A DNA stretch of 60,963 nucleotides from a virus (Duplodnaviria; Caudoviricetes): IMG/VR virus record IMGVR_UViG_3300050004_000011, positions 1 to 60,963 of that record. One strand, 5' to 3'. Made by a program: the position numbers and the translations under genes. Shown in pieces: positions 1,856-9,588 of this stretch (its first letter is position 1; each line of letters opens with the position of its first letter). The notes beneath the pieces are model-generated. The model saw nothing but the letters and a program-made list of their open reading frames with translations. It ran no database searches and was not told where the DNA came from.

Positions 1856-2716
1856 ATGCATCTCATGACTCGCTCAGCAGCAACATCATCCGCACAACAC
1901 CGCGCCGTTCGTCAACCCTCCACCGTGTCCCAGCCGGCCCCCGCGCGCCAGGCGTTTCAGGTGAGTTTTGCCACGCTGGAAGAAGAAGCGGCGCACTACG
2001 ACCGACTGGCCGCTGATGCGCGCGCCCGCAAAGCCGAGCTCGAAGAGAAGGCGCGCCTGGAAGAGGAAGCACGTCTGGCCGAAGAGGCACGCAAAGCCGA
2101 AGAAGCACGCCTGGCGGCCGCCGAGGCCGAAGAAGCAAAGGAAGCCGAAATGATGCACACCACCAACGACAAGCAGAAGAAGTCTCGCTCCGCCAAAGCA
2201 AAGACCAAACTGGCCGCAGCCGAAAAGGAACGGCGCGAAGCCGCGAAGGCTGCGGCAGGGCAAAAAAAGGGCATGTTCACGCTGCGCAAGCAAATCAAGG
2301 CCGTTGGGATAACGGGACAGCGTCTCGAGAAACTGCTCTCAGAAATTCAATACATGCGGTCGGATGTGGTCGAAGCAGACGACGAGGAAGAGATCCCCAC
2401 CACTTACACAGGAACGGGTATGGGCGAAAGACTCGAAGAAATCATGGAGCTCGTGGACGAACTGGGCGTGATCTCGGCCCCCGAGGTCTCCAAGCGCGTG
2501 CTCGGCAAGGGTGGCAAAAAGTGGGAGGGCAACCCAGTTCGGCAGCAACTCATGAAGTTGGTGCGACAGGGACACCTGCAATCCGCGTCGTGCAAGGTCC
2601 CGCAAATGAGTGGCGGTATCGTCAAGCGCAGCCCCACCATCATCTACGCCCGCACCGACGCCGCACTGATGGCCTACAAGCTGAAAATGGAAGAAGATCG
2701 CAACCCCAAGCAGTGA
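1856..2716 (+). CDS. Ala/Glu/Lys-rich coiled-coil protein with C-terminal winged-HTH-like domain; possible regulator
   Basis: EEARLAEEARKAEE repeats; ISAPEVSKRV...VRQQLMKLVRQGHL resembles a wHTH; divergent from int. Confidence 0.5.
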   Translation: MHLMTRSAATSSAQHRAVRQPSTVSQPAPARQAFQVSFATLEEEAAHYDRLAADARARKAELEEKARLEEEARLAEEARKAEEARLAAAEAEEAKEAEMMHTTNDKQKKSRSAKAKTKLAAAEKERREAAKAAAGQKKGMFTLRKQIKAVGITGQRLEKLLSEIQYMRSDVVEADDEEEIPTTYTGTGMGERLEEIMELVDELGVISAPEVSKRVLGKGGKKWEGNPVRQQLMKLVRQGHLQSASCKVPQMSGGIVKRSPTIIYARTDAALMAYKLKMEEDRNPKQ

Positions 2717-2792
2717 TCCCCGAAACAGACCGTCGATCAGGACAATCCCAATAGTTGGGCACACTTGACCCCGATCCACACCCTTCCGTCGA

Positions 2793-4352
2793 TCACCGTC
2801 GGTTGGCGATCTTCGCCAGGTTCTCTCGGTACCGCCTCGATTTGTCCGCGAGGCGGTCCAGGGCCTGGGTGGTGGTGTCAACGTGATCGTCGTGGGTGAA
2901 CCGGGGGAACTTGATGTGCTCCTCCCTGACCACGTCGGCGCCGATGATGTACTCGATCTTGTCCACCTTGCGCGAGTCCCCGGGCGGGTACACCACCTGC
3001 CCTGACTCCCACTTCTCGGTGTGGACGTGGTAGCGCTCCTCCTTGGACCCCTGCGGCTCCACGCCCTTGATGCCGGGGAATTTTGATTGCATCTCCTCGA
3101 TGATCGCTGGACCGTTTGCCTTGAGCTCGATCAGCTTGATTTTTGCCCGGTGCCAGTGCGGGCGGGACTGCGCGAGCGTGAACTGCGCCTTGGACGCCAC
3201 GTAGTTCCAGTGCCCACCGACCCAGTCGATCAGACAGTACATCTCCGGGCGCCCCTCGAGCTTGCGCACGATGTAGTCATTTTGGGTGTTGGGCACGCGC
3301 GCCATGCGGTCAGCCAGGCTGCTGAAATACTCACGCACCTCGGCCAGGTCGCGGGTCACGCACCAGAGCTCGCCAGCCACCTTGCTGTGGCTCTCCTTGG
3401 TGCCCTTCGACGAGAAGTCCCACGACTGCACGAAGGTGCCCTTGGTGGGCGCGGAGATCCACTCGAGGCGCGTCCAGGACTCCTCCACGAAGCCGCCAGT
3501 GGCAGGCGTCGGGTCCTGCTGTAGTTGCGCCGAGGCCTCGTTCTTGAGCTTGATCTCCTGGGCGCGTACACGCTCCTCAGGGAACAGTTCCGGCCAGAGC
3601 AGTTCGCCCACTTCCTTGCGCGGGTCGCGAGCCCACATGCTGCGTTTCACCTGCCGTGCCGGCAGGACCAGGCTCTCGTAGCCCTCCGCGATGCACCGCC
3701 CCGCCAGGTCATTGCTGTGAACCCTTTGCATCACGACAACAATCCAGCGCTTAACGCGGGTCTGCAGGGTGCCATCAAACCATGCATCAACTTTCTTGAA
3801 TGCTGCCTCGCGCCCCAAAATTGCATCTTGAGGTTTGAGTGGATCGTCGATGATGATCCCGTCAACGTGACGTCCGGTTCCCTTCCCCTCTGGACTCGTA
3901 TTAAATCGAAATCCACCACGCGAATTTTTGAACTCGCGCAGAGCTGGCGCCTCCTTGCGCAGCTTCACGTACGGATAAGCAGTCTTGTATCGAGCATCGT
4001 TCAGGATGCTGATCATTTGCTCGCTTTGGTTGTTGAGCAGTGACTGGTCGAAGCTGCCCGCCAAAAAGCTGCAGCCCGGATCAAGTGTCCAGAACCATGC
4101 GGGCCAGAAGACGCCTACCATTTTGCTTTTGCTATGGCCGGGAGGAATGTTGATCACGAGGCGCTTGACTTCGCCCAACGTGACTGCGGTCAGATATTCG
4201 CAAATGGCCTCAAGATGCCAATTATCCAAAAAGTCTCGGGGGTCTGTGACGCCCCAGAACTGGCGGACAAATTCGTGTAAACCGCCCCGATCGATCAACT
4301 CCCGCATGATCAGGGCTTCTTCGGGGTCGAACTCGGTGTCGGCGTCAAGCAT
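2793..4352 (-). CDS. terL: Terminase large subunit
   Basis: INIPPGHSKS Walker A, IIIDDP Walker B, QSWDFS and HDDHVD nuclease motifs. Confidence 0.93.
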   Translation of the reverse strand: MLDADTEFDPEEALIMRELIDRGGLHEFVRQFWGVTDPRDFLDNWHLEAICEYLTAVTLGEVKRLVINIPPGHSKSKMVGVFWPAWFWTLDPGCSFLAGSFDQSLLNNQSEQMISILNDARYKTAYPYVKLRKEAPALREFKNSRGGFRFNTSPEGKGTGRHVDGIIIDDPLKPQDAILGREAAFKKVDAWFDGTLQTRVKRWIVVVMQRVHSNDLAGRCIAEGYESLVLPARQVKRSMWARDPRKEVGELLWPELFPEERVRAQEIKLKNEASAQLQQDPTPATGGFVEESWTRLEWISAPTKGTFVQSWDFSSKGTKESHSKVAGELWCVTRDLAEVREYFSSLADRMARVPNTQNDYIVRKLEGRPEMYCLIDWVGGHWNYVASKAQFTLAQSRPHWHRAKIKLIELKANGPAIIEEMQSKFPGIKGVEPQGSKEERYHVHTEKWESGQVVYPPGDSRKVDKIEYIIGADVVREEHIKFPRFTHDDHVDTTTQALDRLADKSRRYRENLAKIANRR

Positions 4353-4389
4353 GTGTAGTCATTTCAGGTAGGCCGGGATCCAGCGTCCA

Positions 4390-4569
4390 GTTGCAGATTC
4401 CAGGGCCTGCACGCCCTTTGGTTTGTGCCGCGGAGCACACCGCACTGACGTTCCTGCTCCCGTTGCAGATTCCAGGGCCTGCACGCCCTTTGGTTTGAGT
4501 GCATTGCTTGGCGCCGCGCAGGACGCCCGCACCGTTGCAGATTCCAGGGCCTGCACGCCCTTTGGTTTG
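4390..4569 (-). CRISPR. Mini CRISPR array: 3 identical 36-bp repeats, two 36-bp spacers
   Basis: Repeat (minus strand) CAAACCAAAGGGCGTGCAGGCCCTGGAATCTGCAAC at 4390-4425, 4462-4497, 4534-4569; unique spacers 4426-4461 and 4498-4533; 7 bp after the nuclease stop. Confidence 0.95.
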
Positions 4570-4576
4570 TCGTCAT

Positions 4577-5860
4577 TCACGCAGCCAAGGATATCGAGGC
4601 TTTGTGGAGGATGTTGCGAGCGGCGTTGATATCCGCGTCTTCGACGTGTCCGCAGCCAGGTGCTACGCACGTGTAGAGTTTGCCGTTCCTGGCTTCTTTC
4701 GCCACGTTGCCGCAATGCGAGCAGGTCTGGCTGGTATAGGCGCAATCCACCTCTCGCACGCGGTCACCAAGTCGCAGTTTGATGACATCCAGCGTCGCGT
4801 GCATGTAGGACAGCCCGCCTGTGTTGCTCTTGAAGTTCTTCGCAAGTTTCTCAACAGCAACGAACTCGTGGAGCTCAAGGCGCGGTAGTAATTCGGAGTG
4901 CAGCCAGTGTACCACGCGACGCTTGTCTGCTTGGTCGATGCGGGCAATCTTGCGGCGCGCACCAACGATCTGCTCAGGACAACGACTCAGGTCAGCCACC
5001 GACTGCAGGGCCGCTCGCGCGGTACGTGCCAGCGCAGTGCGGTCATTTTTCTTGGTGTAACCGTCACTGAGAGCCACCAGATCAGTCTGACCGACATCCA
5101 GCCCGACGCCAGGAGAAACAGGTGTAGTCAGTTTACGCGCAGGCACGATACACTTAACCGCGGCGTACCAACCGTCCGCACGCAAGTTGAGAGTCACACC
5201 CTGCACTTGCTTGCCTGGGATCGGTCGCCGAAGACGTCCCAGCAGAACCATCCCGTTCACCTTGATGCGCGCGTTGTACCAAGGCGCTCCTCGCCGCTCC
5301 CCGTAGAACCCTCCGGTTTCGACCAGAGGTGCGTTCCCCCACACCAGCGGGGCCGGGTCGTTTCTGCGCTTGTAGTTGGCGCGCTTGGTCCTCATCACAC
5401 GCTTTACCGTGTCGCGATACAACACCGCGTTGCCCAGACGACCGTAGATTGAGCGCAGGTCCTGGTACGAATCCTTGCGCCAATCTAGCTCCGGGCGACC
5501 TTTCACAGCGGCGTCGATCTGCTTGTAGTATTTCATCCACACACCCGACGCCAGCACGTCTTTGCAAGCACGCTTGTGCTCGCGCCAGAGCTCTTTGACC
5601 GCCAGTTTTTCTTCGTCAGTCGTTGGCGTCGGGGGGTTCGGAGGCTCTGGCATTACCGGTGCGTCGCCCACCAATTGCTCGCGTTTCGCACAGGCCTTGC
5701 GAGCGTTCTTGACGTCCTCACGCCCACGAACGATGTGGTTGGTGATGTTGCGCACCTCGTCTTGCAGGACGCGCAGGGTTGCGTGTGCTTCCGCGTCGGG
5801 GTAGAGACGGATAAGCTCGACACGTAGTTCGGTGTTCGGTGGTAGTATCAGTTTGTTCAT
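4577..5860 (-). CDS. Compact type V CRISPR effector (TnpB/Cas12f-like RuvC nuclease, 427 aa)
   Basis: N-terminal IRLYP; RuvC-I VGLDVG, RuvC-II VAVEKL, zinc finger TSQTCSHCG...CVAPGC, RuvC-III DADINAARNI; flanked by CRISPR repeats. Confidence 0.92.
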   Translation of the reverse strand: MNKLILPPNTELRVELIRLYPDAEAHATLRVLQDEVRNITNHIVRGREDVKNARKACAKREQLVGDAPVMPEPPNPPTPTTDEEKLAVKELWREHKRACKDVLASGVWMKYYKQIDAAVKGRPELDWRKDSYQDLRSIYGRLGNAVLYRDTVKRVMRTKRANYKRRNDPAPLVWGNAPLVETGGFYGERRGAPWYNARIKVNGMVLLGRLRRPIPGKQVQGVTLNLRADGWYAAVKCIVPARKLTTPVSPGVGLDVGQTDLVALSDGYTKKNDRTALARTARAALQSVADLSRCPEQIVGARRKIARIDQADKRRVVHWLHSELLPRLELHEFVAVEKLAKNFKSNTGGLSYMHATLDVIKLRLGDRVREVDCAYTSQTCSHCGNVAKEARNGKLYTCVAPGCGHVEDADINAARNILHKASISLAA

Positions 5861-5880
5861 GGTTCACACACCGTTGTCTA

Positions 5881-5916
5881 GTTGCAGGTTAGAGGGTCTG
5901 CACACCCTGTGAATCA
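5881..5916 (-). CRISPR. Solo degenerate repeat upstream of the effector, followed by a 20-nt guide-like segment (5861-5880)
   Basis: 26/36 identical to the array repeat; stem AGGGT/ACCCT replaces AGGGC/GCCCT; GTGCAG loop and CTGCAAC end invariant. Confidence 0.85.
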
Positions 5917-7611
5917 AAGCCACAGGCGCCCACCCCTCATCGTCAAAATCGCTCGCTTGCCATTATGGTAGACAACGGTGTGCGAAACGCTCCACGAGCT
6001 CGGACCGTGTGCGTATGGCAGCCGCCTGTTGCACACCCCCGATGAGAACACGCCGTCGCGGATGCACGCCTTGTGGCTGTGCCCCTTCACGATGCGTGTG
6101 GCCATGCGCGAGTACGCCGCGTCGCTGCCGCGCGAGCCATCAGGGCCTCGATCGCCGTGGAGTCCGCACTCGACGGGGTGGTCCGGCGGCCCCACCACGA
6201 AGGACTCATCGCCGCCCAGGAACCGGGCCAGGCTTCCGACGCCATGCCGCTGCATCGCCCACTCCAGGAAGTGCCACCCCTGCCCCTCGCGCAGCGCGCG
6301 GACGCGCGCCAGCTGGGCCTCGAGGTAGAGCTCGGCGTTGGGCAGGTCGGTCTTATAATCCGCCTCGTCCAGCCAGCGCTCTCCGTGAACGTCGTGGTTG
6401 CTCGCCACCACGACTGTCTGGCAGAAGTCACGGTGGGCTAGGTGCAGCAGCGTTGCGGTCACTTTGAGCTCGGCCTCCACGGTGTCGACATCAGCGCCAC
6501 CGATGTGCTTGGCGAAGCGCGCCGCGAAGGACTTCACCTCGTGGTGGCTCCGGTTGCGAAATGAGAGCGTGTCGTGCCAGAGTTGCACTCGGGGCCGCAG
6601 GGTGTCGATCACGCTGTCGGTTCGCCCCCAGTTCAGAGCGCGGACCGCAGGATCAATCTCGCTCGCGTGTATGTCTCCCCAAGATATGGCTTCGACGCGG
6701 TGTCCGCGGGTCACCTGCCCGTCCGCCACGCGGAACGTCAGATCGTGGAACGCGCCGTCGTCGTCCGCGTTCAATTGCCGACACCACCAATTCTCCGAGA
6801 CCAGGTCGACCTCAACAATGAGAGCACCGAACTGGTGATGGAACTCCGCTTTGATGCCCTCTTTTTTGGCGATGTAATTTCGCTGGGTGACGGCGCCGGT
6901 CGTGAAATTCAGCTTGGGCGGGCGCTCACCGATGACCGGCACGCTCTCGAGCGCGATCTTGGCGTGCGGGAAGATGCCCGACGCCGGTCCCGAGTACGAC
7001 TCCAATCCCGATAGTGGGCGGACCGCGGTCGGCAGGATGTTCATTTCTGCGCACCACAGCAGGTCCGGCGCCAAACGCCACTGGCAACTACCGTGCTTCT
7101 GGGGGTCGTCGCAGATGTACTGCTGGATGGCTGGATCGTACCAGAGCCCCTCGTGGTCGCTGCTGCTCGCACGCCCTGCCTTGGTGGCCTTCGCGCCGTA
7201 CGCAGATTTGTTGTAGCTGAACCTAGACACCATGATGCGAGCACCAGTGGCCTCCGCGTACGCTTCCAGGTTTGCCAGGAACTCCGCGTGCACTGGCGTG
7301 TTGTTCTGCGCGCTGGTCAAGATGTAACGGGCCACCTCCGGGCGGTGCGCGCCGGTGCACAGGTCGTTGGGTTGCGGTGCGGGGACGTGCCCGTGCACTA
7401 TCGGGCCGCTGTCGGGGGCCGGTTGCGCGGCGGCGCGGGCGCGGGCCTGCACGGAACGCAAGCGTGACTGAAGTTTGGTGCGCTTCCAGCCGAGCGCCTG
7501 CGCAGCGGTGTTCTGACTGCCGTGCTCCACCAGGGCCTCGATGGCGGTGCGCTCGGTAGTGCTCATGGGGAGATCGAGCAGGCTGGCGTACGGGTTGATG
7601 GGTGCGGTCAT
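5914..7611 (-). CDS. HTH plus metallophosphoesterase-fold protein (T5 A1-like nuclease)
   Basis: ILTSAQNNTPVH, WGDIH, SNHD, HGD, GHSH motifs; N-terminal HTH; start at MTAPINP. Confidence 0.7.
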   Translation of the reverse strand: MTAPINPYASLLDLPMSTTERTAIEALVEHGSQNTAAQALGWKRTKLQSRLRSVQARARAAAQPAPDSGPIVHGHVPAPQPNDLCTGAHRPEVARYILTSAQNNTPVHAEFLANLEAYAEATGARIMVSRFSYNKSAYGAKATKAGRASSSDHEGLWYDPAIQQYICDDPQKHGSCQWRLAPDLLWCAEMNILPTAVRPLSGLESYSGPASGIFPHAKIALESVPVIGERPPKLNFTTGAVTQRNYIAKKEGIKAEFHHQFGALIVEVDLVSENWWCRQLNADDDGAFHDLTFRVADGQVTRGHRVEAISWGDIHASEIDPAVRALNWGRTDSVIDTLRPRVQLWHDTLSFRNRSHHEVKSFAARFAKHIGGADVDTVEAELKVTATLLHLAHRDFCQTVVVASNHDVHGERWLDEADYKTDLPNAELYLEAQLARVRALREGQGWHFLEWAMQRHGVGSLARFLGGDESFVVGPPDHPVECGLHGDRGPDGSRGSDAAYSRMATRIVKGHSHKACIRDGVFSSGVCNRRLPYAHGPSSWSVSHTVVYHNGKRAILTMRGGRLWL

Positions 7612-7847
7612 TTTTGGGCGGTGTCCTGGGTGCGGAGGCGGTACAGGGCGCGCAGCGCGACACCCAACGAAATGAAGCTGAAGGCGAGCATGCCCGGCAG
7701 TCCTGAGTAGTAGGAGAGCAAGCCCCAGCCGACCTGGCTTGAGAGACACACCCACCAGCCCAACACGTAGCGCTGCTCGGCCAGCAGCCAGCGCGTGAGC
7801 ACAGACCAGACGCACATCACCCAACTACCGAGCTCGATGGCGGTCAC
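7608..7847 (-). CDS. Small multi-pass membrane protein
   Basis: Three hydrophobic segments; GTG start overlapping the upstream stop. Confidence 0.55.
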   Translation of the reverse strand: MTAIELGSWVMCVWSVLTRWLLAEQRYVLGWWVCLSSQVGWGLLSYYSGLPGMLAFSFISLGVALRALYRLRTQDTAQK

Positions 7848-9273: not shown

Positions 9274-9522
9274 TCACTCCCCTCCCTCGGTGAGGTCACT
9301 CGGATCGCCGCGCCAGATGGGGGTACTCTCGTCCCCGGACGTGTGCTCACTGACTCGAAGAATGGTACCCTTCAGTAGTTTGACCCATGCGGTCAGATCG
9401 TGCAGCTCGATTGGGTCCACGTTGTCGTAGAGCTCCTCGGTGGCGGCCTCCACGAGCTCGCGGAAGGCCTCGGGGGTCAGCTGGGTGTGTCGGGTGCGGG
9501 GGTATCGGTTGGTGTTGCTCAT
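9274..9522 (-). CDS. Hypothetical protein directly downstream of a solo repeat
   Basis: ATG at 9522, 30 nt after the repeat. Confidence 0.55.
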   Translation of the reverse strand: MSNTNRYPRTRHTQLTPEAFRELVEAATEELYDNVDPIELHDLTAWVKLLKGTILRVSEHTSGDESTPIWRGDPSDLTEGGE

Positions 9523-9552: not shown

Positions 9553-9588
9553 GTTGCAGATTCTACGGCCTGCACGCCGTGTGGTCAT
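9553..9588 (-). CRISPR. Second solo repeat, ~3.7 kb from the effector, followed by guide-like ACCACACCTTCCAC
   Basis: 29/36 identical to the array repeat; compensatory stem ACGGC/GCCGT; intergenic. Confidence 0.88.

Follow-up and report, generated by a model that had tools for sequence, protein, structure and literature searches.

The described systems closest to the locus considered here are compact type V CRISPR nucleases and TnpB proteins. Cas-phi works with a guide RNA made of CRISPR RNA (crRNA) only. A myxophage paper describes a 610-amino acid Cas12m. Approximately 50 independent TnpB-array associations have been inferred, with the candidates pooled under V-U (2025 CRISPR classification, PMC12669027), and a TnpB/Cas12 classification predicts the variants V-U6 to V-U45 (PMC10691335). 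Work on landfill viromes places viral TnpB-like proteins of 372–474 amino acids beside arrays without adaptation genes (PMC12607003). Two preprints concern Cas12p, a “hacker” effector of 500–700 amino acids with a trans-activating crRNA (tracrRNA) and a GTN protospacer-adjacent motif (PAM), and the Thermus phage effector Cas12r (564 amino acids), for which a crRNA-only guide RNA with a 3′ repeat-derived crRNA segment, an ARG PAM and the targeting of integrative elements are reported (bioRxiv 10.64898/2026.04.20.719267). A review sets out the concept of intronless homing, in which a rival allele is told apart by substitutions near the nuclease gene (PMC13565253). The stretch considered here, termed the window, is the whole of IMG/VR virus record IMGVR_UViG_3300050004_000011 (60,963 bases), a soil phage that CheckV rates as 100% complete and in which no end repeats were found. 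It carries a cassette consisting of a gene for a 427-amino acid RuvC nuclease and a short array of repeats. With moderate confidence, this cassette is read as an unnamed, V-U-like, adaptation-less phage type V system that is built on a TnpB-sized nuclease and directed against related co-infecting phages. In its predicted mode of action it comes closest to a crRNA-only Cas12, and it is a descendant of TnpB.

Every part of the cassette lies on the minus strand, in the order A1-like DNA-transfer gene, degenerate solo repeat, nuclease gene, array of three repeats and two spacers, and terL. The first-pass annotation had described a miniature CRISPR cassette of TnpB/Cas12-like type that is carried by a phage and lacks an adaptation module, a transposase and a detectable tracrRNA. 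That anatomy stands, including the RuvC protein with its D/E/D residues intact, the solo repeat upstream and the three-repeat array downstream, the site between the A1-like gene and terL, and the lack of cas1, cas2, tnpA, an anti-repeat or intergenic room for an omega-RNA or tracrRNA.

The nuclease matches the Pfam family Cas12f1-like_TNB at 55.5 bits against a cut-off of 26.3, and OrfB_IS605 at 17.7 bits, which is under the cut-off of that family. As in type V systems, it is a single effector with a split RuvC-like domain. The catalytic D/E/D triad and a zinc finger (CxxC...CxxxxC) are intact, and D255, E337, D408/D410 and the cysteines C380, C383, C398 and C403 are unvaried in the alignment of 27 out of 27 family members. 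The AlphaFold (AF2) model has a predicted local distance difference test score (pLDDT) of 86 and a predicted template modeling score (pTM) of 0.68. The nearest solved structures in a Foldseek search were AsCas12f, CnCas12f1, the ISDra2 and ISFba1 TnpBs, Cas12p and LaTranC, with template modeling (TM) scores of 0.49–0.57 at 12–18% identity. When sequence profiles are compared, an AI-designed TnpB-like nuclease and ISDra2 TnpB come out on top among the solved relatives (~1e-13; ISDra2 ~3e-13). The match to Cas12f (E ~7e-10) covers the last 55–130 residues only, which form the C-terminal zinc-finger/RuvC part, while LaTranC is matched across 50 residues (E 4.7e-8) and Cas-phi (E 5e-7) and Cas12p (E 3e-6) across approximately 60 residues each. 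Since the structural matches stay at TM 0.49–0.57 and the Cas12-type profile matches are confined to the C-terminal part, the protein is a TnpB-sized RuvC enzyme and no close member of any structurally characterised subtype.

The array consists of three 36-nt repeats with a 72-nt period and two unrelated 36-nt spacers. A degenerate copy at 5877–5916 is 73% identical to the array repeat over 40 nt. Allowing up to three mismatches, the repeat motif occurs five times in the window and not once in 100 shuffles. A covariance model of the repeats likewise finds exactly five copies, with one further weak match (E 0.19). The fifth copy (solo repeat 3 in Table 1) is new beyond the first-pass annotation. 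For the repeat RNA, 11 variants from the window and the homologous loci L009, L011, L001 and L012 were aligned (L numbers denote homologous loci or contigs). The predicted fold has two interlocking helices, stem 1 (AGGGC/GCCCU) and stem 2 (UGCAG/CUGCA), with the first strand of stem 2 being the loop of stem 1, so that a compact pseudoknot results. All 106 of the 106 cells pair (100%) across the variants, and three of the ten pairs show two-sided changes: G-C to C-G, C-G to U-A, and A-U to G-C in stem 2. The stem of solo repeat 1 has a compensatory U-A pair. None of 500 shuffles reached the covariation score, and sliding the partners by one to three columns lowers pairing to 11–45%. The pseudoknot is well supported but not proven, because the sample of variants is small and partly non-independent. 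It lies directly 5′ of the spacer, the position in which type V handles sit. The 3′ end of the repeat reads GCAAC, an ending associated with Cas12f repeats, and an Rfam search of the RNA returned no match at E ≤ 1. On the plus strand (4402–4561) the terminator calls place a weak hairpin with a T-rich run behind it on each repeat. A role as plus-strand terminators was rejected, as the stem has only five pairs and the T-run is missing in L009; it also leaves the stem-2 covariation and the gene linkage unexplained.

The whole record contains no Y1 TnpA (PF01797), serine recombinase/resolvase (PF00239), Cas1 or Cas2, and the single-copy nuclease gene is the only one with PF07282 (TNB domain). Within 1.5 kb, no anti-repeat scored above shuffled repeats in the window and in four of the five relatives tested. 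The best scores (7–8) fall under the shuffled means (8.5–9.0) in five of these six loci, and the sole repeat complement in L009 is a pair of full repeats on the opposite strand. Only 7 nt separate the nuclease stop from array repeat 1, and 20 nt separate solo repeat 1 from the nuclease ATG. The tracrRNA with anti-repeat that marks Cas12f (V-F) was thereby not found, nor was close sequence kinship with Cas12f, identity being 13–18% in structural alignments. Neither kinship with TranC nor a tracrRNA split from an omega-RNA was detected, and the likeness to TranC is that of an evolutionary intermediate.

A word-indexed protein search returned 26 further proteins of 425–447 amino acids at 50–69% identity, followed by ordinary TnpBs at no more than 33%. 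An exhaustive search of 1.84 billion representatives yielded 16 clusters at E ≤ 1e-30 and 127 at E ≤ 1e-10. The family occurs on phage or metagenome contigs only. In the species representatives of 185,579 prokaryotes, none of 593 candidate stretches was confirmed as a homolog. Among cultured phages, no relative of the nuclease exceeded 30% identity (56 records, none covering 80% of the query). The source databases name the family proteins “transposase” or not at all, and PHROG “transposase” families match them.

DNA was available for 14 first-fetched loci, representing 11 distinct lineages, to which L073 was added later. An array directly follows the nuclease gene in 10 of the 14 loci, or 7 of the 11 lineages (L001/L002/L013, L003, L004, L005/L006, L008, L009 and L012), with proteins 27–59% identical to the window nuclease. 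Such a conserved adjacent array is a mark of type V systems, and the retention of the link between gene and array down to 27–30% protein identity argues for a functional unit. There are seven repeats in L009, whose protein is 59% identical, four in L001/L002/L013, five in L004 and 15 in L003, the last belonging to the complete 49,871-base genome G001. The L012 array has at least eight and is carried on in L023. In L011 one repeat is followed by flank only, and the full-length homolog of L014 (8001–9371, 30% identity) has no repeat, the next gene beginning immediately. The L010 locus is cut off. In L073 a three-repeat array lies downstream and two repeats, one spacer apart, lie upstream (5850–5961), so that the gene is bracketed on both sides. 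A wider scan kept 80 of 444 relatives, mostly generic TnpBs, and only L073 was new for the family. The nuclease homolog of L008 (5974–7329) has an internal stop codon and an array of only two repeats; this copy may be decaying, or the assembly may be in error. In prokaryote genomes the repeat pattern gave 47 isolated matches and no arrays, which was judged to be chance, and tblastn of 50 loci (these 47 and three from IMG/VR) found none with a nuclease homolog. As no host arrays with this repeat were found, the cassettes are not mini-arrays that borrow a known host system.

The surroundings of the cassette recur in part. L009 has an A1-like gene upstream, 53–72% identical in amino-acid segments to that of the window, with approximately 2.2 kb of extra genes between it and the cassette and another gene downstream. 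The cassettes of L001 and of L012+L023 have terL on one side and a portal-like gene on the other. Together with the A1-like gene and terL in the window, this places the cassettes in packaging modules beside conserved genes. The extra block of L009, absent from the syntenic junction of the window, includes a thymidylate-synthase-like gene (2551–3693, phrog_85) on the opposite strand, and this gene is preceded by two variant repeats with a 21-nt spacer between them.

Several arrays bear signs of rearrangement. Exact duplicate spacers occur in L012 (9373–9942), L023 (1–271), L004 (7320–7644) and L003 (7293–8290). One spacer of L012 is present three times in full and as a cut fourth copy at the contig end, and others are present twice. 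Some array units have short spacers of 19–26 nt or truncated pieces of the repeat 5′ end. Because of the duplicate spacers and truncated repeat fragments, there are hints that the arrays change through recombination or slippage rather than through Cas1-Cas2.

The evidence for the targets comes from the spacers of the relatives. In the search, 38 unique spacers from nine arrays were compared without gaps with their own carrier locus (8–15 kb), the array being masked. Five of the 38 match their own cas gene or an adjoining gene with scores of 19–30 (approximately 78–88% identity), while ten rounds of shuffled spacers (380 in total) gave a single score of 17 or more. Spacer 1 of L009 matches the nuclease gene of its own locus at 36 of 42 positions. 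Spacers 2 and 6 match the gene immediately downstream of the array, the former at 29 of 36 positions and the latter at 21 of its first 24, the remainder being truncated repeat. In L003, 30 of 35 positions of spacer 1 agree with the antisense strand of the nuclease gene of that locus, and 28 of 37 positions of spacer 3 agree with the gene directly upstream. In two separate lineages, the predicted target of the gene-proximal spacer is a rival version of the nuclease gene itself. Mismatches in the five spacers fall mostly at every third base, as expected if the spacers derive from diverged alleles of coding genes. Each of the five pairs also has at least two mismatches in the first nine positions, and such seed mismatches would spare the carrier. 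The 5′ flanks of the three L009 protospacers are TTT, TTC and TTC (TTY in three of three). These spacers support a use against sibling phages at the homologous locus.

On this basis, the current proposal is as follows. Minus-strand transcription would cover the cassette along with the packaging genes, and the 36-nt repeat would fold into the small pseudoknot and form the 5′ handle of a crRNA, with the following 20–36 nt as the guide and apparently no need for a tracrRNA. The nuclease, with its RuvC site intact, would then cut double-stranded DNA bearing a matching protospacer behind a T-rich 5′ motif, putatively TTY as in the closest array-bearing relative. The likely targets are co-infecting related phages at or beside the homologous locus, namely rival alleles of the nuclease gene and alleles of adjoining genes. 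Seed mismatches would spare the carrier, and the junctions between repeats and flanks would be spared as the place of the PAM is taken up by the repeat. The rival is expected to be excluded, with biased inheritance (gene conversion) of the cassette neighbourhood as a likely by-product.

A number of observations weigh against this proposal. The neighbour matches come from two of the nine arrays only, leaving 33 of the 38 unique spacers unexplained; the window spacers and those of six other arrays have no match in their own locus. The PAM motif is drawn from three protospacers at one locus (L009), and the L003 protospacers, which belong to a different repeat type, have the 5′ flanks ATGC and ATGG. 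The first-pass annotation had likened an internal spacer to a virion gene of a relative, a resemblance that did not recur: the two spacers of the window gave nothing above 14 nt in a local blastn-short search of the window and 18 loci, no match in the array-masked search of their own locus, and two chance-level matches (E = 4) by blastn against 50,697 phage records, and an exact 24-mer of spacer 1, the only spacer scanned in this way, had no match in IMG/VR. The competition role put forward by that annotation has thus gained the five neighbour-matching spacers of L009 and L003, while the window's own spacers stay without a target, and for the window phage itself the role rests on its relatives. 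No sibling or empty-site relative, of the kind that had been called for, was found with terL as the query in IMG/VR, and the best match among cultured phages is 34% identical. TnpB and Cas12f use long RNAs, and it would be out of the ordinary for a 427-amino acid protein to need no more than a 36-nt handle; an extra scaffold RNA without an obvious anti-repeat is conceivable. Lastly, the family may already be among the predicted variants V-U6 to V-U45.

The alternative that survives best, although it is held only tentatively, is a programmable homing cassette. The homologous locus of the rival would be cut, and recombinational repair would copy the cassette and the solo repeats. Each solo repeat would make the flank downstream of it a TnpB-style guide against repeat-free alleles, and the cassette would parallel, by means of RNA guides, what free-standing homing endonucleases do in T-even phages. 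The targets in genes directly flanking the cassette and in rival cas alleles are in keeping with this, as is L011, in which the single repeat followed by flank is the TnpB arrangement. So is the position of the cassettes beside conserved packaging genes, where homing endonuclease genes are often found. In the window, L009 and L073 the nuclease gene has repeats on both sides, and solo repeats with perfectly conserved cores are dispersed through the genomes. The window has two outside the array (Table 1) and L009 has four: two on the opposite strand before the thymidylate-synthase-like gene, one upstream of the nuclease gene and one 1 kb downstream. Of the 22 repeat-core copies of G001, 15 are in the array and seven are dispersed over both strands, six of these seven with a perfect 22-nt core. 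The L073 genome has one copy approximately 68 kb from its array. As far as the arrangement of genes can be read, solo repeats share the strand of the gene that follows and are mostly intergenic, a placement of limited weight in tightly packed phage genomes. Several are unlike the array repeat of their own phage and closer to repeats of other lineages. They could act as TnpB-style flank guides, regulatory binding sites, decoys or recombination sites.

Against homing stands the lack of any empty-site allele or pair of relatives with and without the cassette among the IMG/VR and cultured-phage records. The L009 junction past the A1-like gene has a terminator-like hairpin, no similarity to the post-repeat flank of the window and no guide match. 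A read contig that joins 3272 to 7538 with 34 other letters between was considered as an empty site and distrusted, as it came from an 80%-likeness search. No consistent PAM remnant is seen upstream of solo repeats, and the same spacer data are explained by killing of rivals without copying. The first-pass annotation had both outermost guides matching the flanking genes. On the terL side, this guide is nothing but the 37 nt that adjoin the terL ATG, which makes the match trivial, while this flank could still serve as a TnpB-style terminal guide. On the A1 side, an inverted match of 17 out of 18 positions was recovered, but the same stretch is the nuclease 5′ untranslated region (UTR) and part of a predicted RNA stem, which is discussed below. 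Homing in the strict sense is plausible but unproven. A broader reading, which is on the whole rather doubtful, joins the nuclease and the scattered 36-nt repeats into a distributed RNA-guided homing and marker-exclusion network, in which the solo repeats would be minimal selfish elements copied by repair and the arrays would be extra guides against rival alleles of the cassette and its neighbours.

It is unlikely that the spacers are aimed mainly at non-sibling targets, namely host defence loci, satellites or integrative elements. Precedents are the type I-F system of phage ICP1 and the Thermus phage Cas12r system, which act on targets of this sort. Neither the two window spacers nor 33 of the 38 unique family spacers have a match in phage data, and the integrase of the window phage (27.3 bits against a cut-off of 27.1) points in the same direction. 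The spacers of Cas12r mostly match integrative elements (bioRxiv 10.64898/2026.04.20.719267). Nonetheless, the sole targets that could be identified are alleles of the phage locus itself.

Less probable again is a reading of the solo repeats, and perhaps of the last array repeat, as cis-regulatory RNA sites, at which the protein would attach to the pseudoknot within polycistronic mRNA and block or process the 5′ UTR of the gene that follows. Through solo repeat 1, the nuclease gene would be among those regulated in this way. The solo repeats end 20–80 nt before start codons on the same strand, solo repeat 3 doing so 31 nt before an ATG at 9521, and in the window, L009 and L073 a repeat shortly precedes the nuclease gene. 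TnpB has been reported to process its own mRNA (PMC10278001). In the window, the 18 nt past solo repeat 1 form the inverted match described above. In the predicted fold, an 18-bp stem joins the 5′ UTR past the repeat and the AUG to sequence further upstream and encloses solo repeat 1 (-63.9 kcal/mol, z -4.76; none of 200 shuffles was as stable). A comparable stem is found at none of the nine other repeat-flank junctions tested (one of ten in total), and none precedes the L009 or L010 genes. Where phage genes are co-oriented and tightly packed, every intergenic element comes to lie near a start codon, and regulation leaves the intact nuclease site and the arrays with foreign spacers unexplained. 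The inverted repeat is read as a lineage-specific RNA structure, possibly autoregulatory. Taken as a DNA target, which is the weaker reading, its site has the flank ATGG and not TTY. It is not taken as evidence for a flank-targeting guide.

An improbable role for the variant solo repeats is that of RNA decoys (RNA anti-CRISPRs), which would soak up the nucleases of rival cassettes instead of serving that of their own phage. Solo repeat 1 of the window resembles the L011 repeat, the stem of solo repeat 3 resembles those of L001 and L012, and three of the four L009 solo repeats carry a covarying stem-2 variant absent from the L009 array. A review describes single repeat units that act as RNA anti-CRISPRs (PMC11656645). 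Against this, one L009 solo repeat and six of the seven in G001 have cores identical to those of their own array. The weakest account, and a very improbable one, is the ordinary IS200/IS605- or IS607-type TnpB insertion with a duplicated omega-RNA end and decayed transposon ends as the “array”: canonical TnpBs are the closest solved relatives by sequence (ISDra2, E ~3e-13) and the family goes by the name of transposase in its sources and in PHROG, but neither kind of TnpA is present, the gene is single-copy, no homolog was confirmed in the scanned prokaryote species representatives, the 72-nt spacing is regular with unrelated 36-nt spacers, the arrays of relatives reach 15 repeats, and the linkage of gene and array is conserved to 27–30% protein identity.

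The positions of the features are collected in Table 1. The true start codon of the A1-like ORF is probably internal, as the family match starts only at residue 110. The integrase-family match is marginal, and on the strength of it the phage may be temperate. The motif GAATGACGAC spans the stop codon just ahead of the first repeat in the window (4570–4582), L004 (~7306–7320) and L005 (~6697–6711). It is common to nucleases that are only approximately 28–30% identical, and may be a leader or processing signal. In a second soil metagenome from another study (run X2), short contigs are 90–99% identical to parts of the nuclease gene (5110–5755) and its neighbours; a close relative of this phage exists elsewhere. 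Contigs of run X1, probably the source, span the stretch.

Table 1. Features of the cassette and related elements in the window, listed along the minus strand, followed by outlying features. ORF, open reading frame.
Feature	Position	Strand	Evidence or remark
A1-like upstream gene, DNA transfer (T5 A1-like) protein	5914..7824	-	phrog_1745 “DNA transfer protein”, E 4.3e-159
Inverted repeat, 5′ arm, 18 nt, within 3′ end of A1-like ORF	5969..5986	-	94% complementary; 88 nt between arms
Solo repeat 1, variant; 5′ end overlaps A1-like stop codon	5881..5916	-	Covariance model 46.9 bits, E 8.5e-14
Inverted repeat, 3′ arm; first 18 nt past solo repeat 1, nuclease 5′ UTR	5863..5880	-	Predicted stem reaches over AUG
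Nuclease ORF, 427 amino acids, TnpB/Cas12f-fold RuvC (candidate type V-U effector)	4577..5860	-	Pfam, alignment, AF2, Foldseek
Array repeat 1, 36 nt	4534..4569	-	Sequence repeat search and covariance model
Spacer 1, 36 nt	4498..4533	-	No match beyond chance
Array repeat 2, 36 nt	4462..4497	-	Sequence repeat search and covariance model
Spacer 2, 36 nt	4426..4461	-	No match beyond chance
Array repeat 3 (last), 36 nt	4390..4425	-	Sequence repeat search and covariance model
37-nt flank past last array repeat, up to terL start codon	4353..4389	-	Read from sequence
terL, terminase large subunit	2793..4352	-	phrog_38, E 4.5e-56; tblastn 34% identity to annotated terL genes
Solo repeat 3, intergenic, stem variant CGGC/GCCG	9553..9588	-	Covariance model 48 bits, E 3.5e-14
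Integrase-family ORF, 428 amino acids	570-1856	-	Pfam 27.3 bits against cut-off 27.1, barely above

If the nuclease works with the 36-nt pseudoknot handle alone, its 427 amino acids would place it among the smallest crRNA-only DNA cutters known, which would be of interest for genome editing. The spacers against rival alleles suggest that phages use RNA-guided nucleases as T-even phages use protein homing endonucleases. The long-discussed link from TnpB homing through phage competition to the birth of CRISPR arrays would become directly testable. With its single-repeat, bracketed and multi-spacer forms, its duplicated spacers and its truncated repeats, the family also offers material on adaptation-free array growth. 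Should the homing and marker-exclusion network hold, free-standing homing endonucleases of phages would have in it their first counterpart guided by RNA, and it would be a living picture of TnpB flank-guides growing into CRISPR arrays without Cas1-Cas2.

The first-pass annotation had also known of no description of the architecture. As a claim that the architecture is new this goes too far: phage-encoded compact type V systems are an active genre, and effectors of TnpB size next to arrays and lacking adaptation genes have already appeared in print (PMC12607003, PMC10691335). The family, the pseudoknot repeat, the dispersed solo repeats and the own-neighbourhood spacers found no description in the accessible portions of the literature on such systems. 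No report was found that joins marker exclusion with phage-encoded CRISPR, Cas12, TnpB and co-infection.

Compared with known systems, the cassette is nearest in layout to the candidate V-U systems, with which it shares a TnpB-sized RuvC effector, a short adjoining array and the lack of cas1, cas2 and cas4. It differs in the pseudoknot repeat, dispersed solo repeats and own-neighbourhood spacers, none of which was found for those candidates in the accessible text. The family could not be matched to any named or numbered V-U variant, although it may already be listed as one. With TnpB/OMEGA (ISDra2), the nuclease shares its size, fold and catalytic residues, as well as the best sequence matches among solved structures, and the one repeat and flank of L011 resemble an omega-RNA guide. 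Unlike TnpB/OMEGA, the cassette is single-copy and phage-only, without TnpA or insertion sequence (IS) ends, and has multi-spacer arrays and a 36-nt handle instead of a long omega-RNA. Cas12f (V-F) and TranC are likewise miniature effectors of the same fold (TM 0.49–0.57), and the mixture of array-bearing and single-repeat members in the family is as expected of an intermediate of the TranC kind. No anti-repeat or tracrRNA was detected in the cassette, however, and the sequence likeness is limited to the C-terminal part.

Cas-phi (V-J), Cas-lambda, Cas12p and Cas12r resemble the cassette in being phage-borne, without adaptation genes and presumably directed against competing elements, but their effectors of 500–800 amino acids are only remotely related to the nuclease. 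Cas12p, with its tracrRNA and GTN PAM, and Cas12r, with its 3′ repeat handle and ARG PAM, also differ from the proposed 5′ handle and from the TTY motif of L009. The T-even endonucleases SegF and MobE, which act in intronless homing and localized marker exclusion, share with the cassette the placement of a nuclease gene between conserved phage genes. Predicted targeting of a rival allele near the own gene is seen in L009 and L003 (five spacers), not in the window or the six other arrays, and these five matches fit the logic by which free-standing homing endonucleases tell rival alleles apart through substitutions. The T-even enzymes recognize their sites by protein, whereas in the cassette an RNA guide would take over this task.

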